A DNA stretch of 64,000 nt from Longimicrobiales bacterium (GCA_965249725.1 OZ252251.1:311209-375208); one strand, 5' to 3'. Counted from the first letter of the stretch, positions 4,169 to 53,377 are shown. Notes: generated from the letters alone by a model not told the origin. Made by a program: numbers and translations.

Positions 4169-5940
4169 ATGAGACAGTCGAGGTGGACGGTCCTGGCCGT
4201 GGCGCTCGTGGTTTCGGGAGCGTGTGGAGGTGGGGAGGCGGGTCCCAGTGGAGAAGTCGTGCCGTGGAGTCTCGATGGGGGCGTAGTAGACATCGGCGAT
4301 GGTATCCCCTTCTGTGAGGCCGCGATGGCACGTGTCGCGGAGTACATGGGGCAGTTCGAGGGGCAGGTGCCTGCGGATGAGCGGTACGGGGGCACGGCGG
4401 CGGTGGCGGCGATCGGTCCCATCCCCGGTGGCGTGAATGCCCATGTCTCCGCCGATCAGGGGGGCAATGAGCATCAGACGTTCATCAACCTGATGACGCT
4501 GATCAAGTACGATACCGAGCTCAATGCCGTTCCGTACTTGGCCCAGTCGTGGGAGGTTTCAGACGACAACACGCAACTCACGTTTCACCTCCGGAACGAT
4601 GTGTATTGGCACGACGGCGAGCTCACTGACGCGTACGACGTGGCCTACACGTACCAGCGGGCGATCGACCCGGAGACCGGATTCCCTCAGCCCGCCTTCT
4701 GGGCACACTACGATCAAGATCCCGGAGGCGTGGAGGTCGTGGACTCCTTCACGGTCAGGTTTCGCATGCGGCCGCACGCCGAGTTTCTCGACCCCTGGCG
4801 TGAGTTTCCCATCATGCCGCAGCACCTGCTGGAGGGTGTGCCGTCCGCGGAGTTGCGGCAGCACTCCTACGGGGACGTATGCCCAGTCGGCAACGGTCCT
4901 TTCGTCTTCATACAGCACCAGCAGGGAGCCAACTGGACCTTCCAGGCTAATCCGGCCTTTCCGGCAGGGTTGGGCGGCCGTCCCTTCCTCGATCGATACA
5001 TCTATCAAATCATCGTCGAACCGACCACGATTCTCACCGCTCTGCTCACAGAGAATATCGACGTATACATCGCGCCGACGCCGGACCAGGTGCAGACCAT
5101 CCTCGACTCCGACGACTTGGACTTGAGGGTTTACCCCTACCGGCAGATCAATTTCGTCACGTGGAATGCCCGCCGGCCCCAGTTGTCCGACAAGCGCGTC
5201 CGCCAGGCCATCACCAAGGGCACGGACCGCCGGCAGATCGTGGAGGCGTTGTTCGGCACCTATGCCCGCGTGCCGAACACGACCCTACCCTCTTCTCACT
5301 GGGCGTACGACGCCTCGATCGGGGCCGAGACGATGGCGTACGACCCGGAAGCCGCGAGCGCTTGCTGGCCGAAGCCGGATGGATAGACCGGGACGGGGAC
5401 GGGGTGCGGGAGAATGCGCAGGGTCTCCGCCTCTCGATCGAGCTCATATACAGTCAGAACGCCCTTCGGCAGCAGGTCGTGGAGATCATGCAGGCACAGC
5501 TCTCCGAGATCGGAATCGAGGCTCAGCCGACCGTTTTGGCGTATTCGGCTCTTCTCGACCGCATCTTCGACACCGAAGCGCGGGACTTCGACGGGATAAT
5601 GATCGCGTTCACCATGAGCTTCAAGGCAGATGACACCGACTTCTTCCACAGCGACAATATCGATAACGCCTTCGGCTTTTCCGGGACGCAGCGCGCCGAC
5701 ATGGACGCTCTACTCGAGCGGCTTCCGCTGATCGTTGATCGCGAGGAGGCCAAGCCTGTCTGGAAGGAGTACCAGGAGCTCCTGGTTGACGAGCAGCCTT
5801 GGATGTTCGCCTATGACGCCAATCGTTTCGATGGAGTGAACAAGCGTCTACAGGGTGTCGTCATGGACGCTCGGGGCGAGTGGCAGAACGTCAAGGACTG
5901 GTGGATCCCTGCCGATCAGCGAAAGGGCCCCGGACGCTAG
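4169..5940 (+). pseudogene. Family-5 (DppA/OppA/NikA-type) ABC substrate-binding protein, disrupted by a 1-nt frameshift
   Basis: ORFs 4022-5386 and 5161-5940 carry the N- and C-terminal halves of one SBP. Frame A reads ETMAYDPEAASACWPKPDG-stop; frame B reads RERLLAEAGWIDRDGDGVRE. The conserved YDPE..A..LLAEAGW block is therefore split near 5351-5358. Likely start is ATG 4169 (MRQSRWTVLAVALVVSGAC, signal/lipobox-like). Confidence 0.75.
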
Positions 5941-7198: not shown

Positions 7199-8342
7199 CC
7201 ACACGCTGGATGGGCCGAGCCGGAAACCTCGTGGAGGAGCACGCCTCTCGGCCGTTCTTCCGGGGCTACCCCAACTACTTGCTGGCCGGTGGGCGGTCGG
7301 AACGATGAGCTTGCTGGTCTGGGTCGGCTTCCTGAGCGTGCTCGCCACGCGCTGGAACCGTTTCCAGGAGGCCTGGTCAGGCCCGGCGGATCATCGACTC
7401 GCCGCCGTGATCCTGGTGGCCGGCCTCCTCTCCGCGTGGTCTTGGTCCATGAGGGACACGAAGCGCCCTGCGTTGGCGAGAGAAGGGGGGATTAGCCAGT
7501 GGGATCTGGCGGTAGAGGCCTTCAAGAGGAACCGGATCGCGGTGATCGGCTTGTTCGCCCTCGTGTGCTTCTACCTGATCGCATTGATCACCCCCTTGAT
7601 CTCGCCGCAAGACCCAACGGTCCAGAACTCGCTCACGACGCAGCGGATGCTTGCTCCGGGCGGTGGTTTTCCACTCGGCACAGACCGCTTGGCTCGGGAT
7701 GTGTTCTCACGGATCCTCTACGGCGCGCGCATCTCTCTGTCCATTGGCTTCGTGGCCGTGGGGATCAGTCTCACAATCGGGACCTTGTTGGGCGCGGTTT
7801 CAGGCTTGCTGGGGGGGGGGGTGGTGGACGGACTCATCATGCGCTTCGTGGATATGGTGATCTCGTTTCCGCAACTCGTGCTTCTTATCGCGATCATCGC
7901 CGTCTTCGAGCAGTCCTCCATCTTCACGATCGTCGCCGTCCTCGGCCTTACGCAGTGGCCCGGAACCACGCGGCTCGTGCGTGCGGAGGTGCTCAGCCTG
8001 AGGGAACGCGAGTTCGTTCAGGCGGCCCGGGCTCTGGGCCTGACTCGGATGAGAATCATACTCCGTCATGTGATCCCAAATACGATGGCTCCCGTGATTG
8101 TGGCGGCGACCTTGGGCATCGGAAACGTGATCGTGCTCGAAGCGGGGCTGTCCTTCTTGGGTATCGGAGTCCAGGCCCCGACACCGTCGTGGGGGTCGAT
8201 GGTGGCCGAGGGACAGGATTACCTGTTGAACGCCTGGTGGATCTCGACCTTCCCCGGCCTTGCCATCGTGTTGACGGTAGTGGCCTTCAATCTCGTTGGC
8301 GATGGTCTCAGAGACGCCCTCGATCCGAGGCTGCGCACATGA
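7191..8342 (+). CDS. Peptide/nickel ABC transporter permease (DppC/OppC-like) with ~105-aa N-terminal extension
   Basis: ATG 7191 overlaps the upstream stop (ATGACTGA). [26 protein letters not shown] loop. The canonical DppC start region [18 protein letters not shown] appears only after ~105 aa. Start uncertain (alternative ATG 7449). Confidence 0.85.
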
Positions 8343-44338: not shown

Positions 44339-44388
44339 CCCGCCCGCCCCGAGACGAGATGTTCTCGGTGGGGGGCGGGTTTTTTTTT
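44339..44388 (+). terminator. Rho-independent terminator after the sigma gene
   Basis: GC-rich ~15-bp stem (CCCGCCCGCCCCGAGA / TCTCGGTGGGGGGCGGG, one bulge, one mismatch) followed by T9 (44380-44388). Confidence 0.7.
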
Positions 44389-45338: not shown

Positions 45339-46145
45339 CTAGGGCCGGTAGCTTCCCGAGAGGGGCGTTACCCGCAGGACACCGGTACCCGGGTCGTCAT
45401 CGACGGACACGGGCCATTGGTAGACCTGCTGCAGCGTCTTCTCCTGCAGGACCTCGCGAGGTCGTCCCTCGGCCGCGACGCGGCCCCGATCCAGAAGCAG
45501 CATCCGGTCTGCGAAACGGGCCGCCAGATCGAGATGGTGTGTGATAAGGAAGATCGTCATGCCCCCGTCCGCCGAGGCGCGGAGCAGCTCGAGGATCTCC
45601 ATCTCGTGACGGATGTCCAGGCTGGCCGTGGGTTCGTCGAGCACCAGGACTTCGGGCTCCTGGGCGAGGGCTCGGGCGACTCGTGCCCGCTGGAGTTCTC
45701 CACCGGACAGGGTCGAGACGAACCGGTGTCCGAGTTCCCAGACGTCGCAGCGTTCCATGGCCCGCTGGACGGCCTCCCGATCGGTTGGGGTCTCCGCCTG
45801 TAGCGGCCCCAGGTACGGATAACGGCCCATGCCGACCAGGTCCCGCACGGTCAGTGGGAAAGCGACCGACTCAGCCTGGGCCACGACCCCGACCTCTCTG
45901 GCCAACGCCCGCCGGTTCCACTCCGAAACCGTCCGTCCCGAAACACGGGTCTCTCCTGTGGCCGTCGGGACCATGCCCAGCAACGCCCTGAGGAGGGTCG
46001 ACTTTCCGGAGCCGTTCGGCCCGAGGACTGCGTAGAAGGCGCCCGGCGGGACCACCATGGATACGCCGTCCAGCGCCGCGTCTTCCGCTCCCGGATAACG
46101 CACGGTGAGATCGACGGCCTCCAGGGCGTTGGATCGGTCCGACAT
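45339..46145 (-). CDS. ABC transporter ATP-binding protein (FepC/BtuD-type)
   Basis: VLGPNGSGKSTLLRAL, LSGGELQRARVARAL, VLVLDEPTASLD. Confidence 0.9.
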   Translation of the reverse strand: MSDRSNALEAVDLTVRYPGAEDAALDGVSMVVPPGAFYAVLGPNGSGKSTLLRALLGMVPTATGETRVSGRTVSEWNRRALAREVGVVAQAESVAFPLTVRDLVGMGRYPYLGPLQAETPTDREAVQRAMERCDVWELGHRFVSTLSGGELQRARVARALAQEPEVLVLDEPTASLDIRHEMEILELLRASADGGMTIFLITHHLDLAARFADRMLLLDRGRVAAEGRPREVLQEKTLQQVYQWPVSVDDDPGTGVLRVTPLSGSYRP

Positions 46146-47143
46146 CAGCCCTCCCCGCTCCCCAGGCTGCGCCGCAGGAGGACCAGGAACAGAGGCACTC
46201 CCACGAAGGCCGTGACGACGCCGATCGGTATCTCGGTCGGCGAGAGAACGGTCCGGGCTGCGACGTCCGCGAGCGTCAGGAAGACCGCTCCGGCCAGGAA
46301 TGACAGCGGAAGGAGTGTTCGATAGTCCGATCCGGCAACCAGCCTTACTCCGTGGGGGACGATGAGTCCGACGAAGCCGATTACGCCTGTTGCGGCTACG
46401 CCGGCCGCTGTGAGGAGCGAGGCCACCACGTAGGCCATCTTCTTCACGCGCTCCACGTTGGTGCCGAGGTAGCCGGCTGTCTCCTCTCCGATCGCCATCA
46501 AGTTGAGTGGGCGCGCCAGGCCGGCCAGCAGTATGGCCGCCGGTAGCGTGTACAGGGCCACCGTCGCCACGGTTGCCCAGTCGGCCCCGGCCAGGCTGCC
46601 CATCATCCAGAGAACGGCGCTTCGTACTGTGCGGGCCTCCGAGACCGACAAGACGAAGGCGATACAGGCCGCGAAGAACGCTCCTACCACGACCCCGGCG
46701 AGGAGGAGGACTCGCACGTCGACCCGGTCGTCCGCCGCCAACGCCACTCTCAGGACGAGCACCACGGCCAATATGGCACCCGCGAAGGATGCCGCCGGGA
46801 GCGCCCAGGAGTGGCTGGCCACCAGGCCCAGAGCCAGCGCCAGAACCGCCCCGGTCGCTGCCCCCCCCGAGATGCCCAGGATGTAGGGCTCAGCGAGCGG
46901 GTTACGGAGCAAGGCCTGAAAGACGGCTCCGGCCAGGGCCAGGCCTCCGCCGACCAAGATGGCGAGCGCGGCCCGGGGGGCCCTCAGCTCGACGACGATC
47001 TGTCGCAGGGCCGGATCTCCGCCACCCGTCAGGGCCGCTACCACCTCCGACGGCGAGAGTTCGACCGAACCGAGCCATATGCTCAACACGAAGGCGGCGA
47101 TCAGGACGACGAGAAGTGCTGCAGCCCAGGCGAACCGCCTCAC
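46145..47143 (-). CDS. FecCD/BtuC-family ABC permease
   Basis: GTG 47143 overlaps the SBP stop (GTGA). Ten-TM-type hydrophobic protein. The ORF-track extension to 47419 overlaps the SBP gene and is not coding. Confidence 0.85.
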   Translation of the reverse strand: MRRFAWAAALLVVLIAAFVLSIWLGSVELSPSEVVAALTGGGDPALRQIVVELRAPRAALAILVGGGLALAGAVFQALLRNPLAEPYILGISGGAATGAVLALALGLVASHSWALPAASFAGAILAVVLVLRVALAADDRVDVRVLLLAGVVVGAFFAACIAFVLSVSEARTVRSAVLWMMGSLAGADWATVATVALYTLPAAILLAGLARPLNLMAIGEETAGYLGTNVERVKKMAYVVASLLTAAGVAATGVIGFVGLIVPHGVRLVAGSDYRTLLPLSFLAGAVFLTLADVAARTVLSPTEIPIGVVTAFVGVPLFLVLLRRSLGSGEG

Positions 47144-48048
47144 CGGAAGGCCTCCGGATGAATCAGGCGAGCAATCGCTGTGGCCGCCTCTCCCAATCGA
47201 GGCCCGGGCACCTCCACCCAGCTGGGCACCGGTGCGTGATCGACGTCGGAGAGCTGGCGCGGAACCTCGCCTGAAGACACCAGGATCAGATCCACCTCTC
47301 GTGTAATCAACTCTTCGAGACTGATCGGGCCGTAGAGACCATCCAGGTCGCCGAAGACGTTGTCCGCCCCGCCGGCGGCCATGAGTTCGTGTATATAGGT
47401 CCCAGGACCGGCCACCCACGGTGGCTCACCGCCCATCAGATAGATGACGTTTCTGCGGGGTAGGCCGGCAACTCGGTCCGCCACGTCGTCGAGAGCCCGC
47501 CGCATGCCCGCCAGAATCGAGTCCACGGTGTCGCCGGTGCCAGTGATCGCCCCAAGACGCTCGACGATCGCTCGGACGTCCGCGATGCCGTCCGGCTGGA
47601 TGGCGAAGTGCGGAATGCCCAGATCACTCAAACGATCGGCGGTAGCCCGATCCGACTCCCCCCCGAATCGGACGACCAGATCTGGGCGGAGCGAGACCAA
47701 TACCTCCAGGTTGGGCTGGAGTCCTCCTCCGACAGACGGTAGCTCCGCGAGCGCCGCCAAATCGTCGTAGTCGGTGCGCCCGACGAGGTGATTCCGGACC
47801 CCAAGCGCGAGGAGCGTCTCCGTGGCCGAGGGCACGAGCGAAATGATCCGGGTGGGGGCGCTGGCGAAGCGGTGGCGCATACCCGAGTCGTCTGTGACCT
47901 CCAAGGGAAAGCCGGCTGCCGGAGCCACCTGGGTCCCGGATCCGACTCGGCTCCCGGGCTCCCCATCGCCTCCGCAGGCCAACTGAGAGGCCAGAAGCGC
48001 CCACACGCCCGCTCGGAGGAACCGCTGCCAGGCCCTGACGGGAGCCAC
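47140..48048 (-). CDS. Periplasmic binding protein of the BtuF/FhuD class (cobalamin or iron-chelate)
   Basis: Signal with Cys (ALLASQLACGG). RIISLVPSATETLLALG. 302 aa. Confidence 0.8.
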   Translation of the reverse strand: MAPVRAWQRFLRAGVWALLASQLACGGDGEPGSRVGSGTQVAPAAGFPLEVTDDSGMRHRFASAPTRIISLVPSATETLLALGVRNHLVGRTDYDDLAALAELPSVGGGLQPNLEVLVSLRPDLVVRFGGESDRATADRLSDLGIPHFAIQPDGIADVRAIVERLGAITGTGDTVDSILAGMRRALDDVADRVAGLPRRNVIYLMGGEPPWVAGPGTYIHELMAAGGADNVFGDLDGLYGPISLEELITREVDLILVSSGEVPRQLSDVDHAPVPSWVEVPGPRLGEAATAIARLIHPEAFR

Positions 48049-48081: not shown

Positions 48082-49092
48082 TCAGGGCGCGCCGGCGCCC
48101 TCGGGCGCCGGTAGGCCACAAGAGTCCCGATACACTTCTGTCCAGCCGCCACTTTCTCTCTGAAGGGCCGAGATCCAAACGGATGTCTCACCGACCACCT
48201 CGAGAATGAGTTCGGGGGTGCTGTCACCATCGACGTCGATTCTGCCGAAGTAGCGGGCCGCCCCTTTTCCGTGTTGGCTCCAGATCCTGTGGTCGACGTA
48301 GGTGGTCTGGTAGCCACGACCGTCGGGATCGGAGGCGACGAGGAACACCGAGTAGGCGTTGCTTGGGGCCGGTCCGACCTGAAGAGAGTCCTCGTACACG
48401 AAGGTTGCGACGACCGTGGGAGCTACCGAGGACTCGCCGTTGAAGACCTGGACATCGCGCCGGACACCGAGGACGGATGCGGGCCAAGGAGATCCCAGGG
48501 TGGGCAGAAGCTCCCTCATCATGTTGAGGGACGTGACTCTGAGGTCTCGAGTCTGCTCCACCGGATCGTAGTCGTCGTATCCCACCGAGGTCGTGATGTC
48601 GCTTGGAACCGCGAGAAACGTGGTGGCCGCGGCAGCGCCGGGCACCAGTTCAATCGGACCGTTGACCTGGGCCCTGCCCCCGCAATACGCGTTGCTCGCG
48701 CTGTAGCCGGTCGCGGTCAGCGTGCCCACACGCACCCCTTCGGAGAAGAGAGTGAACGTCGATCCTGCCGCAAAGTACCGCTCGCCAAAGGCCTGAGCCT
48801 CCTGTCCTGATCCCGCACCCGGAAGCTGATGCAGCCCATCAGGATGCAGCTCCGCGACAGGCACCAACCAAGCCTCGGACCCTATGCGGCGTCCGAGAAG
48901 GAGGACGGGCTCCGGGGGGGTAGAATCCACGACGGCCTGGGTCGTGTCGACCGGCGGAGCGGGAGTCTCCATGATCGTTGGTGCCGAGGGGGCTCTCAGG
49001 CCCACGTCGACCCCTCCCCACTCCACGTTGTCGCATCCCAGGGCGACCATTACAATCCCGAGCAACGGGATCCTCTGAAGGCCTTTGACCAT
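48082..49092 (-). CDS. Hypothetical lipoprotein
   Basis: MVKGLQRIPLLGIVMVALGC lipobox-like signal. C-terminal IDVDGDSTPELILEV (FG-GAP/VCBS-like turn). 33 nt upstream of the SBP gene. Confidence 0.55.
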   Translation of the reverse strand: MVKGLQRIPLLGIVMVALGCDNVEWGGVDVGLRAPSAPTIMETPAPPVDTTQAVVDSTPPEPVLLLGRRIGSEAWLVPVAELHPDGLHQLPGAGSGQEAQAFGERYFAAGSTFTLFSEGVRVGTLTATGYSASNAYCGGRAQVNGPIELVPGAAAATTFLAVPSDITTSVGYDDYDPVEQTRDLRVTSLNMMRELLPTLGSPWPASVLGVRRDVQVFNGESSVAPTVVATFVYEDSLQVGPAPSNAYSVFLVASDPDGRGYQTTYVDHRIWSQHGKGAARYFGRIDVDGDSTPELILEVVGETSVWISALQRESGGWTEVYRDSCGLPAPEGAGAP

Positions 49093-49170: not shown

Positions 49171-49848
49171 GTGGAAGACGGCGACTCGTTGAGGACCCGC
49201 CTGGTCTGGGTGCCCTCTTTTGTGGTGGGTGCGGCCGCGGCCACCTCCGCGGCGGTCGCGGTGGCTCTCCTACTGTATTCCGGCGAGGGTATGCTGCGAT
49301 CATTGACGCTGATCGTCGCGGTGGAGCTCCTGGCATTTGGTGTGGGCCTTGCCGGACCCTCGAGCGGCAGGGATTGGGCCAGAACGGTCGAGGCTCTCCG
49401 AATCCGTTGGCTGAACGTCCTCATCGCCTTCCTGGCAGCCTCGGTCTTTGCGGTGGCGTGGACCTTCGGCGGTGGATTCGGGGCTGAGCAGGGTACACAG
49501 GCCCTTGGGCTGGCTCTGCTGGGAGCGCTGCCGTTGTATGCCTGTGGTCGGCTCCTCACGGCGATTTCTTCGGTTTCGGCGGGGGTTGTGCGCAGCAGCC
49601 CCGGTGCGTTCGCGTCCCTGGGAGCTGCTCTCGGCGTGCTCATAAGCGGGTCGACCGGACTGTCGCGCCTCGGGGCCCCGTCTCTGTTGTTGTTCTTCCT
49701 GGTCGCGCTCTCTGGCACGGCGTTGATGCAGGGATCGGTTCTAGGGGACCTGCGGGAGGTGTTGGACGGAGGCGACGCCGCGCCGACGGGAGTCGAACAT
49801 GGGGCCGGACCTGAGGCTGAGCTCGAGCCCGAGCAGCACTTCTCGTGA
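49171..49848 (+). CDS. Hypothetical polytopic membrane protein (about 6 TM)
   Basis: GTG 49171 preceded by GAGG. Hydrophobic spans throughout. Stop overlaps the GTG start of the next gene (GTGA at 49845-49848). Start uncertain. Confidence 0.5.
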   Translation: MEDGDSLRTRLVWVPSFVVGAAAATSAAVAVALLLYSGEGMLRSLTLIVAVELLAFGVGLAGPSSGRDWARTVEALRIRWLNVLIAFLAASVFAVAWTFGGGFGAEQGTQALGLALLGALPLYACGRLLTAISSVSAGVVRSSPGAFASLGAALGVLISGSTGLSRLGAPSLLLFFLVALSGTALMQGSVLGDLREVLDGGDAAPTGVEHGAGPEAELEPEQHFS

Positions 49849-50927
49849 TTATCGCTCACCTCTCCGATCTGCATCTAGGCTATCGTGCCTACGCCCACGT
49901 GGAGCAGGGCCGGAATGTCCGGGAAACCGACGTGGCCCGCGCCTTTCACCAGGCGGTTGAGAGGGTGATAGGGCTGAAGCCCGCCGCGGTAGTGGTCGCG
50001 GGGGACGTGTTCGACCGGCCGGAGCCCCCCCACTCCGCGTTGGTGGCCCTGGCCCAGGGCCTGCAGGCACTCAGAGAGGCCCTGCCGGACACCCCGGTGC
50101 TCCTCGCTGCCGGCGCGAGGGATACTCCCCCCCCCGTGGCGGATCCGGGGCCACTGGCCACGTTCGACACGATGGCCGCGGTCGAGGCGGTGACCGGAAC
50201 GACGCGGTCGGTGTACTACTCCCAGTTGGGATTGAACGTGACGCTCGTTCCGCATCGGGCTACGCTGCAGGGGCCACCGCCACCAGTGGCTCCCAACCCC
50301 GATGCCCAGTGGAACGTGCTGGTGGGTTATGGGTCGGTCGATGGAGGGGACGAGTCCATGCTCGCACTGGATCCTTCGGACTGGGACTACGTGGCGCTCG
50401 GCTATGAACATCATCGCCGGCAGGTCGGTGGGCCCGTGCACTATGCGGGGTCCCTCGAGCGGGTTGGTCCCACGCCGTGGGAGGAGGCTGCCGAGGAGAA
50501 GGGCTTCCTGACGTGCGAACTGGACTCTGGGCGGGTGCGTTTCCACGCCATCCACGGTCGACCGGTGGTCTCCTTGGCCCCGATTCCCTTTGAGGAGCAT
50601 CGCCCGGAGCGACTCCGTGGGCGAGTGCAGGAGGTGCTGGACGAGGTTCCGGGTGGAATCGAAGAGAAGATCGTACGTATACGCATAGAGGGGCTTCCAC
50701 CGGATCGCTTGAACCTACTTCATGGGTTGTTGCCGGAATACCGACGCCGGGCCCTGCATTTGGAGGTCCAGCTCGATGATGTTCCGGGAGGGGAATCGGC
50801 CGAGGAGCGGCCTGCAGTGCGGTTGGCGTCGAGGCTCGCGGAGCGCCTTGCGGCGGAGGGCGACAGCCTCGAGGATCTAGTAAAGCTGGTGGAGGATTGT
50901 CTGCCGGCGGTGCGGCTAGGGAGATAG
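49845..50927 (+). CDS. Mre11/SbcD-like calcineurin-type phosphoesterase with degenerate motifs III-V
   Basis: MIIAHLSDLHLG (motif I) and VVAGDVFD (motif II) are canonical. The GNHD position reads GARD, motif IV reads VGYGSVDG, and GHxH reads GYEHH. Confidence 0.8.
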   Translation: MIIAHLSDLHLGYRAYAHVEQGRNVRETDVARAFHQAVERVIGLKPAAVVVAGDVFDRPEPPHSALVALAQGLQALREALPDTPVLLAAGARDTPPPVADPGPLATFDTMAAVEAVTGTTRSVYYSQLGLNVTLVPHRATLQGPPPPVAPNPDAQWNVLVGYGSVDGGDESMLALDPSDWDYVALGYEHHRRQVGGPVHYAGSLERVGPTPWEEAAEEKGFLTCELDSGRVRFHAIHGRPVVSLAPIPFEEHRPERLRGRVQEVLDEVPGGIEEKIVRIRIEGLPPDRLNLLHGLLPEYRRRALHLEVQLDDVPGGESAEERPAVRLASRLAERLAAEGDSLEDLVKLVEDCLPAVRLGR

Positions 50928-50931
50928 AAGG

Positions 50932-52350
50932 TTGAGCCACCTCGATATCGGCACATCGTCGTTCGATCAGGACCGACCCGCCTTCCGGTTGGGTCCCGGG
51001 TTGGCCGCGCTCATCGGTGGCGACGGACCCCGTCGCAGCGAGATTCTCGAGCGCTTCGCCGGCCCGCTGGTGAAGGGAGACGAACGGCTTGCGACGCTGG
51101 TCGCCGGGCACGGGCTGGCGGAGCCCGCACAGGCCTGGCGTCGCGCGGTGCGAGTGTTGGCGCAGTGGCTCGGGATGGAGGGCGTCGATAGAGAGATTTC
51201 GAATCTCGAGGGGGATGCTTCAGCCAGCTCGAGTCTTACCTCGATGGACTCCGGAGTGGAGAACCTCCGTGCCCGGGTCCAGGAACTTCGTCGGCTCCCG
51301 GAAGCCGTGCTGATGAAGGAGCGGGAGTTCCGCGAAATGAGGGCGGACAACGTCGAGGTGAGCGGCGACATGGAGGTCGCCAACATGGAGTGGCTCCGTG
51401 AGAGACAGGACGCGGAGACGCATCTTCTCGCTTATCGCGATCGGGCTCGCGAGCTGAAGGTTCGGCTTCAGCAGCTCGAGGTGGGGGGCCCCGAGAGCGA
51501 GTGCCCCACCTGTGATCGCCTGCTCGCGGAGCGGTACGAGTCGGTCCTGACGGTGCTGCGTGAGGAGTGGGAGTCGGTCGTTCAGGACGGCAGCTGGTGG
51601 AAGCGCCGGCGGGAGCAATTGGATTTCAAACCCTCTCATCTGCAGGATCTCGAGGGGAAAGCAATTCGACTCCAAGCCGCCATCGAAGAGTGTGCCGAAG
51701 AGGTCGAGCGTCTCCGCGCACGCCTACCGGAGCTGGCCGATGCCGAGGACACACTCGCCGCCGTCCGGGCGGCGGGAACGTCGAGGGATCGGCGTAAGTC
51801 CGCTCAGGGTGAGGATCAGGCCACCGCAGGCGTGGACGAAGAAATCGATCGGCGTCGCCGGGCGCTCAAGGCTCTGCGGGCGGAGCTGCTCTCCGACGCT
51901 CGAGACACGCTGGCCGCGCGAGCGGGTCGGTACCTCAATCGTCTGACGAGCGGGGGCGTGCTGGGTGTAGGCGTCACGGGCGACGGAGAGCCGACGGTGA
52001 TTCGGGACGAGGGAGAGAGACGGCTCCAGTCCGACGAGGAAGTGGCAGCCTACCTCTTTGCGCTCCGGATGGCGCTCATCCACCTCGGTGTCGCTCAGGG
52101 CATTCAGTTCGACGAGGTGCTGCTCGGAGATACGTTCGATCGACTCGAACCGGAGGCGAAGGTCCGGGCCGTCGGTCTGCTCAGGAGCATGCTCCCACAG
52201 GTCTCGAAGATCCTACTGTTCTGCCGAGGCGAGATCCTGGACACGATCCCCGAGTCGTTCGATTGGATCGTGGATCTGCGCGTGGACCGGGCGGGAGCCC
52301 CTCAAACGCGTGTCCGCAGCAGCGGGGTGGGGAAGCTACGCGTCCACTGA
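50932..52350 (+). CDS. Short Rad50/SbcC-like coiled-coil protein with CxxC zinc hook and degenerate ATPase motifs
   Basis: 472 aa, TTG start 4 nt after the upstream stop. Walker-A position GGDGPRRS, central ESECPTCDRL hook flanked by coiled-coil-like sequence, C-terminal RAGRYLNRLTSGG. Signature position LQSDEE, Walker-B position VLLGDTFDRLE. Confidence 0.6.
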   Translation: MSHLDIGTSSFDQDRPAFRLGPGLAALIGGDGPRRSEILERFAGPLVKGDERLATLVAGHGLAEPAQAWRRAVRVLAQWLGMEGVDREISNLEGDASASSSLTSMDSGVENLRARVQELRRLPEAVLMKEREFREMRADNVEVSGDMEVANMEWLRERQDAETHLLAYRDRARELKVRLQQLEVGGPESECPTCDRLLAERYESVLTVLREEWESVVQDGSWWKRRREQLDFKPSHLQDLEGKAIRLQAAIEECAEEVERLRARLPELADAEDTLAAVRAAGTSRDRRKSAQGEDQATAGVDEEIDRRRRALKALRAELLSDARDTLAARAGRYLNRLTSGGVLGVGVTGDGEPTVIRDEGERRLQSDEEVAAYLFALRMALIHLGVAQGIQFDEVLLGDTFDRLEPEAKVRAVGLLRSMLPQVSKILLFCRGEILDTIPESFDWIVDLRVDRAGAPQTRVRSSGVGKLRVH

Positions 52351-52827
52351 CCCACTCGGGTCTTCGTCGGACTCACCCCATCTTATTCGCGCCGCCGCCT
52401 CGAGAATGGCCGCTTCCACCTTATCGCGGTCCCGGTACTGCCCGATCGAAATCGTGGTGCGCCCCCGACGGGTGCGGCTGACGCGAATTCGGACATCGCC
52501 GCCAAGGTCCCCTGTCCGTATGAAGTCGTCCTTGGGGTCGTCACGGGACTGGTAGCGAAGGCCGGCGTCCAGTACGGCCGCCTTGTACCTCACCACGAGC
52601 TCTTCGCGCACCAAGTCACTGTGAAAGTGCGCACCCCTGTAGAAGGCGCCTGAGGTGGCATGGCTGAACGTGGCCTCGGGGGGGAGCGCCATTCTGAAGC
52701 CTGGCCAGCCCTCGTCCGCGAGGTCCGGGAACTCGGCGTACCGAATCCCGTCCGTCTCCGACTCTTGGATGGACTCACGGCCCGAACCCAGGATGCCGGC
52801 GGAGCGGGCCACGTCCTGCAAACCCAC
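52336..52827 (-). CDS. Hypothetical protein
   Basis: 163-aa ORF with a protein-like composition, no signal peptide, no motif recognised. Converges on and overlaps the Rad50-like gene end by 15 nt. Confidence 0.4.
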   Translation of the reverse strand: MGLQDVARSAGILGSGRESIQESETDGIRYAEFPDLADEGWPGFRMALPPEATFSHATSGAFYRGAHFHSDLVREELVVRYKAAVLDAGLRYQSRDDPKDDFIRTGDLGGDVRIRVSRTRRGRTTISIGQYRDRDKVEAAILEAAARIRWGESDEDPSGSVDA

Positions 52828-52939: not shown

Positions 52940-53377
52940 TCAGATCCGTTGGTTGTCGGCCCGCCAGCTCTTCACGCGCTTCTTGACCTCGGCTCGGTCC
53001 GAGATGCCCTCGGCGATGATCGCGTTGAAGAGCTCGCCGACCTCACCGTCCGAGGCGAAGCGGAGGCCGATCAGCAACTCGGTCTCCATCCCGTGGATGG
53101 TATCTCGCTGATCCGACCCGAGAATGCGCTCGAGGCGGGCCCGTTCCTCGAGACGAATCACACGATCCTGCACACCAAGTGCGAAGACCCTGGCGAAGAA
53201 GAACGTGATCAGAATGCCAACAGCGAAGAGTAGAGACAGGAGTGCTCCGACCGAGAAGGCGGTCACGACGACATACAATGACCAAAGGGTGTAGACGGCG
53301 ATGAGCCCAAATGCCACGAAGTGGTACAGGGGCACCAACTTGGCGTGACTCTCGAAGCTTTGCGGGACGCTGCTCAC
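52940..53377 (-). CDS. Hypothetical two-TM membrane protein
   Basis: 145 aa. Two hydrophobic spans (LYHFVAFGLIAVYTLWSLYVVV; ALLSLLFAVGILITFFFARVF), then a soluble helical tail. Confidence 0.6.
   Translation of the reverse strand: MSSVPQSFESHAKLVPLYHFVAFGLIAVYTLWSLYVVVTAFSVGALLSLLFAVGILITFFFARVFALGVQDRVIRLEERARLERILGSDQRDTIHGMETELLIGLRFASDGEVGELFNAIIAEGISDRAEVKKRVKSWRADNQRI

Follow-up and report, generated by a model that had tools for sequence, protein, structure and literature searches.

The window analyzed here, a stretch of 64,000 nucleotides (nt; 64 kb) from a Longimicrobiales bacterium (GCA_965249725.1 OZ252251.1:311209-375208), carries at positions 49171 to 52350 a cassette of three coupled genes, two of which encode relatives of the Mre11-Rad50 (SbcCD) complex. 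The first open reading frame (ORF), ORF1 (49171-49848), was recognized by ORF and gene calls and by hydropathy and encodes a protein of 225 amino acids (aa) with six predicted membrane spans. It is followed by ORF2 (49845-50927), which encodes a 360-aa protein of the Mre11/SbcD fold, and by ORF3 (50932-52350), which starts at a TTG codon and encodes a 472-aa protein of the Rad50/SbcC fold. All three genes, and all cassette features described below, lie on the plus strand. ORF1 and ORF2 share a GTGA start/stop overlap at 49845-49848, and ORF2 and ORF3 are separated by a 4-nt gap (AAGG) at 50928-50931, an arrangement already recorded in a first-pass annotation of the locus. The same three products were present in independent gene calls of two ENA assemblies with an identical ORF3.

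ORF2 groups with Mre11/SbcD in both sequence and structure comparisons. It matches the TIGR00619 (sbcd) model at 2.7e-14 with 53.6 bits, which is below the curated cut-off of 77.65, and Mre11 in a PDB sequence search at 1e-9; the phmmer comparison of canonical SbcD with ORF2 gives 3e-50. The AlphaFold2 (AF2) model (predicted local distance difference test [pLDDT] of 86, predicted template modeling score of 0.80) contains a nuclease domain, a capping domain, and two C-terminal helices. This combination of a calcineurin-like nuclease and a capping domain is that of Mre11, and the top 50 PDB matches of the model in Foldseek are all Mre11/SbcD, with E values down to 1e-16.

The active-site motifs were placed by alignment to the canonical SbcD of two related loci, L007 and L008, and compared across degenerate loci, i.e., those devoid of canonical catalytic motifs. 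The latter came from a distribution scan using one genome per species, in which 243 relatives were found and the best 80 were analyzed. Canonical SbcD reads HLADLHLG, GDVFH, GNHD, LMLHG, and GHYH where ORF2 reads HLSDLHLG, GDVFD, GARD, LVGYG, and GYEH, with ALGYEH of ORF2 opposite ALGHYH at motif V, and this placement coincides with that proposed in the first-pass annotation. Motif I (D8-L9-H10, 49866-49874) is intact, with D8 and H10 present in all 79 aligned degenerate loci. In motif II (G53-D54-V-F-D57, 50001-50015), the bridging Asp is kept and both D54 and D57 occur in 80/80 loci, although position 57 is His in both canonical loci. At motif III, GNHD is replaced by G90-A91-R92-D93 (50112-50123). 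Position 91, that of the metal-2 Asn, holds Ala (39 loci), Pro (37), or Ser (4) and never Asn; position 92, that of the catalytic His, is Arg in all 80 loci, and D93 is invariant. The His of motif IV is replaced by Tyr in the window (Y162, 50328-50330); it is present in canonical SbcD and retained in 42 degenerate loci, the remainder having Tyr (37) or Thr (1). A second candidate for this residue, H137 (LVPHR), was rejected, as canonical SbcD has an equivalent of H137 in addition to the true His at LMLHG. Finally, GHxH of motif V is replaced by G186-Y187-E-H189 (50400-50411), where position 187, the first His of the motif, is Gly in 44 loci, His in 21, and Tyr in 13, and H189 is kept in 81/81 loci. 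Residues D8, H10, D54, and H189 are those that we take to be the metal-1 ligands by reference to Pyrococcus furiosus Mre11. ORF2 of the window keeps all four of them and has lost the metal-2 Asn and both metal-2 His residues, such that it falls short of the complete five-motif phosphoesterase site with its two metal sites and catalytic His. The previous description of these motifs as degenerate or eroded was correct in that the changes are real; as far as ORF2 is concerned, erosion is the wrong term, since the alignments indicate a site that is remodeled to a fixed alternative.

ORF3 was less readily recognized. Pfam and PDB sequence searches returned coiled-coil noise only, and the AAA_23, SMC_N, and SbcC_Walker_B models all failed to match it. 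A profile of 19 family members run against 1.8 billion representatives found 1024 proteins, including canonical SbcC proteins of 804 to 818 aa (1e-28 to 1e-48) that carry AAA_23, SMC_N, and SbcC_Walker_B along with the Rad50 hook. Direct comparison of canonical SbcC with ORF3 by phmmer gave 2e-34; given this value and the 3e-50 obtained for ORF2, homology of the two proteins to canonical SbcC and SbcD is far above chance. The ORF3 model (pLDDT of 83) has Rad50 heads as its top Foldseek matches (3qku, 3qkt, 4ncj, and 1f2u, probability 1.00), with a template modeling score of 0.73 on the target for 1f2u_D. In order, the model comprises two N-terminal strands and a helix, helices at residues 65-188, the hook, helices at residues 199-338, and a C-terminal lobe. 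The Rad50 ABC-ATPase head fold is recognizable in it, with an N-lobe strongly reduced to approximately 60 residues and coiled-coil arms reduced to approximately 120 residues each.

Alignment to the canonical 813-aa SbcC located what remains of the ATP site; for Walker A, the signature, and Walker B, the placement agrees with the first-pass annotation. The former Walker A (G29 to E37, 51016-51042) reads GGDGPRRSE opposite GPNGAGKST. Among 82 loci, the position of the Walker A Lys is occupied by Arg in 71, by Leu in 9, and by Lys in none, and the single Lys within residues 1-70 of ORF3 is K48, which is unconserved, so that no alignment restores the missing residue. The Q-loop segment of canonical SbcC is deleted. 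The former signature (L365 to E370, 52024-52041) reads LQSDEE opposite ISGGEE, and the GG pair is found in 0/82 loci. The former Walker B and D-loop (VLLGDTFDRLE, V396 to E406, 52117-52149) aligns to canonical LLILDEVFGSLD, with VLLGDTF opposite LILDEVF; position 399 is Gly in 38 and Glu in 35 of the 82 loci, and position 400 is Asp in 37, Glu in 37, and Gln in 8. At the former H-loop (L428 to G433, 52213-52230), LLFCRG lies opposite ILITH, and Arg takes the place of the His in 71/82 loci. Every ATP-site element, i.e., the Lys and Ser/Thr of Walker A (GK[ST]), the Q-loop, the SGG signature, the Asp-Glu pair of Walker B (hhhhDE), and the H-loop, is therefore replaced or deleted. Elsewhere in the alignment, RYLNRLTSGG of ORF3 falls opposite FLAQLTDGRY.

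The region around the hook is the most conserved part of ORF3 (residues 131-235, 51322-51636) and is shared with canonical Longimicrobium-type SbcC, which reads WLRDRQDAETKL...CPTCGR...VQDGKWW where ORF3 reads WLRERQDAETHL...CPTCDR...VQDGSWW. The CPTC zinc hook (residues 191-194, 51502-51513) aligns to the canonical CPTC, and C191 and C194 are kept in 82/82 loci. In the model it is flanked by helices 105-188 and 199-287, which would place a predicted zinc hook at the apex of an antiparallel coiled coil. As judged from the models, the Mre11 fold survives in ORF2 and the Rad50 fold, together with this predicted hook, in ORF3. At the very C terminus of ORF3, a GVGxLxxH motif (residues 465-472, 52326-52350) is conserved in the degenerate family (G465 in 82/82 and G467 in 80/82 loci). 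Canonical SbcC lacks an equivalent, and the motif may represent a novel site of interaction.

The best 80 of the 243 relatives are nearly all labeled Gemmatimonadota (Longimicrobiales, Gemmatimonadales, and Gemmatimonas), and all examined loci among them are without canonical catalytic motifs. At least 80 species-level genomes of the phylum encode the same remodeled proteins, and the change is not confined to a single genome. The survey of related genomes suggested in the first-pass annotation revealed a conserved triad, and the view that this is not canonical SbcCD holds family-wide, both for the ATPase motifs and for part of the nuclease site. In approximately 45 of the 80 loci, the Mre11-like and Rad50-like proteins are encoded by a single ORF of approximately 830 to 940 aa, and database proteins of 750 to 930 aa confirm the fusion. 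Loci labeled Gemmatimonas, such as L048, are among those with the fused form. Since they are fused into one chain in so many relatives, ORF2 and ORF3 are expected to act as one complex. One fused member of this otherwise Gemmatimonadota-only family sits on a 4-kb contig labeled Planctomycetota (L043, DATKBQ010000623.1), a label that is probably a binning error. No published description of a degenerate SbcCD family was found in the literature on Gemmatimonadetes SbcC, SbcD, or Rad50, nor is the family described in that on pseudoenzyme Mre11/Rad50 and Walker A-less hook proteins. Similarly, no ortholog characterized as an ordinary SbcCD was found. Several sources nonetheless name family members "exonuclease SbcCD subunit D" or "SbcCD ATPase subunit," annotations that overstate what the sequences support.

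According to hydropathy, ORF1 has spans at approximately residues 17-35, 44-62, 81-99, 111-129, 146-164, and 172-190, and it matches no Pfam, NCBIfam, or PADLOC model, in keeping with its earlier description as a protein of about six spans and no recognizable domain. In approximately 77 of the 80 loci, the gene immediately preceding the Mre11-like one is a homolog of ORF1. The membrane ORF, proposed as a partner in the first-pass annotation, is indeed conserved and translationally coupled across relatives. Long forms of the ORF1 homolog (approximately 420 to 490 aa) occur in 32 fused loci and in L007, a canonical locus, and have a C-terminal spermidine-synthase/methyltransferase-like domain matched by NF037959/SpeE-type models. 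In the 486-aa homolog of L007, which has six membrane spans, the C-terminal domain matches NF037959 at 9e-27, the matches of the other homologs being weaker. The L007 protein thus resembles the "fused MFS/spermidine synthase" proteins of NF037959, whereas ORF1 of the window has no spermidine-synthase-like domain. In the window's clade, ORF1 consists of the membrane half only and stops after the sixth span; by comparison with its relatives, it is apparently the surviving transmembrane half of a larger membrane and spermidine-synthase-like protein. Long homologs, such as those at L054:3970-5349, L064:4071-5504, and L007:4911-6371, combine the six-span domain with a spermidine-synthase/class I methyltransferase-like domain and always adjoin SbcCD genes, degenerate or canonical. 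At L010:5263-5912, the ORF1 homolog is found in two adjacent ORFs (5263-5727 and 5724-5912), the cause being a frameshift or else a misassembly of this long-read metagenome-assembled genome.

All three cassette genes are under purifying selection. The ratio of nonsynonymous to synonymous substitution rates (dN/dS) was calculated between the window and six relatives at 75 to 90% protein identity and, with dS at approximately 0.8 to 1.4 and near saturation, has approximate values of 0.065 to 0.085 for ORF2, 0.065 to 0.13 for ORF3, and 0.14 to 0.22 for ORF1. Flanking genes gave 0.10 to 0.26, and we read ORF2 and ORF3 as lower than these flanks. Conservation, measured as the mean majority-residue fraction per region, is inverted relative to canonical SbcC. 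It is highest in the hook-proximal coiled coil (0.81 to 0.84 in the degenerate family versus 0.71 to 0.73 in the Longimicrobium-type canonical family) and lowest in the lobe that held the P-loop (0.56 versus 0.86 for the N-lobe), with the C-lobe at 0.71 versus 0.94. What selection keeps is thus the hook with the sequence on either side of it, the C-lobe, the short GVGxL motif at the C terminus, and an Mre11 core that has one metal site and an Arg.

The neighborhood of the cassette is informative as to its origin. In the window and in the degenerate loci L001 to L003, an ABC (ATP-binding cassette) transporter and a 336-aa gene on the minus strand precede the membrane ORF, the Mre11-like gene, and the Rad50-like gene, which are followed by a TMEM260-like gene (minus strand), a hydantoinase, and a chorismate-binding enzyme. 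Degenerate loci at only 38 to 48% identity to ORF3 retain this neighborhood. The canonical sbcD-sbcC pair (386 and 813 aa) of Longimicrobium-type genomes lies in an overlapping one: the pair of L007 is flanked by the ORF1 homolog, the 336-aa gene, and a flavin reductase of the kind also seen in L003, and that of L008 is flanked by TMEM260-like and chorismate-binding genes. In both L007 and L008, sbcD and sbcC are separated by the same 4-nt gap as ORF2 and ORF3. Because subsets of the same genes flank the canonical pairs, the cassette is most likely the positional ortholog of an ordinary sbcD-sbcC operon, remodeled in part of the phylum, and not a mobile defense island that arrived at this site. 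A search of the 64-kb window revealed no second SbcC or SbcD homolog.

Several neighboring genes deserve mention in their own right. The transporter is a FecE/FecCD/periplasmic-binding-protein ABC importer (45339-48048, minus strand), the linkage of which to the cassette neighborhood is kept across the phylum. The 336-aa gene (48082-49092, minus strand) is divergent from the cassette and matches no family. Its product has a lipoprotein-like N terminus (…ALGCDN), and the gene keeps its place both in degenerate loci and in the canonical locus L007. Downstream, a 163-aa ORF without a family (52336-52827, minus strand) is convergent with ORF3 and shares the final 15 nt of that gene. A DUF6526 gene (52940-53377, minus strand) comes next, and both are found in close relatives only.

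The cassette was also compared with the canonical SbcCD of Longimicrobium-type Gemmatimonadota in L007, L008, P0331, P0408, and P0500. Gene order, the 4-nt gap, the overlapping neighborhood, the Mre11 nuclease and capping fold, the Rad50 head lobes, the antiparallel coiled coil, and the CPTC hook are common to both, as is a near-identical hook-proximal block (WLRxRQDAET ... VQDGxWW). In contrast, ORF3 is 472 instead of 813 aa long and has no Walker A Lys, Q-loop, signature, Walker B Asp-Glu, or H-loop His; Mre11 motifs III to V are altered, and a membrane gene is translationally coupled to the cassette.

We propose, with no more than middling confidence, that the cassette is a Gemmatimonadota-specific, remodeled descendant of an ordinary SbcCD, now an ATP-independent, hook-dimerized scaffold that probably resides at the membrane and binds or tethers its target. 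Since ORF3 has neither the Lys and Ser/Thr of the P-loop nor a Q-loop, signature, or Walker B pair, the ATP-driven engagement cycle of Rad50 should be inoperable, and the loss of the metal-2 Asn and His residues makes two-metal hydrolysis unlikely in the window's genome. The complex would no longer be capable of an ATP-driven clamp-and-cut cycle. It would form an ATP-independent Mre11(2)-Rad50(2)-like scaffold dimerized via the zinc hook, in which selection would act on what the hook-proximal coiled coil does and on a phosphate-binding pocket with one metal and an Arg. ORF1 would probably keep this scaffold at the membrane, where it might bind or tether, most plausibly, DNA ends or structures instead of acting as a processive nuclease. 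Judging from its motifs, the complex is probably non-nucleolytic. The broader proposition that most of Gemmatimonadota swapped SbcCD for such a membrane-anchored, ATP-independent, non-nucleolytic complex, with its function residing in the hook and adjacent coiled coil, is put forward tentatively, and we consider it rather doubtful.

A number of observations weigh against the scaffold proposal. The putative membrane association is read from gene order and the start/stop overlap only. Likewise, the orthology of the cassette to SbcCD would follow from partial synteny, and old paralogy followed by reciprocal loss may account for the same arrangement. The His of motif IV is present in about half of the family and the first His of motif V in a quarter, and some members may therefore bind two metals; the invariant metal-1 site and invariant Arg could also support real catalysis. 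The glycine-rich GGxGxxR loop of ORF3 is fairly conserved (G29, G30, G32, and R35), and nucleotide or phosphate binding without hydrolysis may therefore persist. In known complexes, the lobe I region of Rad50 contacts DNA, and the large-scale deletion of this surface in ORF3 weakens the idea of a DNA tether. Finally, in a Longimicrobiales relative (L023:4537-6998), an IS256/Mutator-family transposase (Transposase_mut at 5.5e-100) splits the Mre11-like gene and leaves the downstream Rad50-like gene intact, which indicates that the module is dispensable at least occasionally.

In our view, the alternatives rank from a one-metal ATP-independent nuclease through a membrane- or polyamine-related role outside DNA metabolism and a defense module to functionless remnants. 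The first, which we regard as unlikely while taking it seriously, posits ATP-independent cleavage of DNA or some other phosphodiester by the metal-1 site (D8, H10, D54, and H189), in which Arg92 would take over from the catalytic His, and reduces the Rad50-like protein to a dimerizing or positioning arm. The invariance of the metal-1 ligands, R92, D57, and D93 in 80 loci is in line with this reading, as are the very low dN/dS of ORF2 (approximately 0.07) and the retention of the motif IV His in 42/80 loci. However, Mre11 uses two Mn ions for hydrolysis and His85-type mutants lose nuclease activity, whereas the metal-2 Asn is gone in all members and both metal-2 His residues are gone in the window's genome. 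Phosphoesterase folds that have lost their metal ligands are kept as structural or binding modules in the B subunits of eukaryotic and archaeal replicative polymerases and in Vps29. Unlike these, ORF2 has one complete, invariant metal site and a fixed Arg, which is suggestive of a site remodeled and not abolished.

Less probable still is a role outside DNA metabolism, in which the complex, together with the membrane protein (in its ancestral form joined to a spermidine-synthase-like domain), would sense or act on a small phosphorylated or polyamine-related ligand or organize an envelope structure, the coiled coil being architectural. The tight, phylum-wide coupling to ORF1, the SpeE/NF037959-like domains of its long forms, and the deleted lobe I region are all in line with such a role. 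Yet the cassette retains the complete Mre11/Rad50 architecture, the Mre11 capping domain included, and L007 has the same membrane gene upstream of canonical SbcCD, which argues that the ORF1 linkage predates the loss of catalysis.

An SbcCD-derived anti-phage module akin to Lamassu or Wadjet is in our judgment very improbable, although the first-pass annotation had raised the possibility of a defense-type module. A Lamassu system (LmuABC) comprises an LmuB with Walker A, the LmuA effector, and usually LmuC. Lamassu has been derived from SbcCD via coiled-coil shortening (PMC12663957), and Lamassu LmuB/LmuC and the cassette are both reduced SbcCD derivatives with shortened coiled coils and a CxxC hook. 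ORF3 gives weak PADLOC matches to LmuB, JetC, and PbeC (3e-6 and weaker), and Lamassu LmuB structures are among its Foldseek matches. These PADLOC matches are nevertheless confined to the coiled coil, that to LmuB (2.9e-6) covering residues 111-382, and no LmuA, LmuC, or other effector gene was found nearby in the window or in the neighborhoods of L001 to L003. In addition, Lamassu requires a prototypical Walker A for defense, has lost the SbcD nuclease domain, and carries the LmuA effector (PMC12663957), whereas the cassette has no Walker A, keeps an SbcD-type domain, and comes without LmuA. The locus is moreover part of a conserved core-genome synteny that extends across the phylum and also holds ordinary sbcCD, as opposed to a variable island, and the defense-island reading was rejected on this ground. 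Finally, the notion of functionless, decaying remnants, prompted by the missing catalytic motifs, the insertion sequence in the ORF2 homolog of L023, and the split ORF1 of L010, carries next to no weight and is effectively refuted by dN/dS values of 0.07 to 0.2, intact reading frames in approximately 80 species, dozens of invariant residues, and the fixation of the replacement residues.

Polypeptides combining Mre11 and Rad50 have been described before, those of the Mimivirus R555 type keeping Walker A, Walker B, and the D-loop (PMC3175470). Many relatives of the cassette are likewise one polypeptide but lack the ATP-binding motifs; the window differs further in that the Mre11-like and Rad50-like genes are separate.

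In experiments, it has been difficult to tell what the coiled coil and zinc hook of Rad50 do apart from the ATPase-nuclease head. If the broader proposition on the replacement of SbcCD in most of the phylum is true, the cassette would be a natural separation-of-function Mre11-Rad50, in which the hook and coiled-coil scaffold has a role of its own, e.g., tethering DNA ends or the chromosome at the membrane. The cassette provides a natural test case, with the ATPase and half of the nuclease site gone and strong constraint remaining, strongest around the hook, and a compact system (472 aa, or one fused chain of approximately 830 aa) for studying the Mre11-Rad50 architecture without ATP. After Lamassu, it would represent a second independent case of SbcCD reduction and repurposing.

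Regarding the minor sequence features of the locus, a consensus scan, in itself weak evidence, gave a promoter-like site (TTGTCG-17-TACAAT, 49028-49056, plus strand) approximately 115 nt upstream of ORF1 and within the 5′ end of the divergent gene. Two homopolymers reported in the first-pass annotation are present in ORF2 where it placed them: C7 (50025-50031), which encodes P61-P62, and C9 (50127-50135), which encodes P95-P97 immediately past the motif III position. They are without evident regulatory meaning, because the PPP varies in relatives (DTPAHV, DTPAPL, and DTPPGP) and 12 homopolymers of at least 7 bases occur in the 64-kb window; phase variation at these runs, which are simply Pro codons, was ruled out on the same grounds. 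The longest homopolymers of the window are G11 at 7811-7821 and T9 at 44380-44388.

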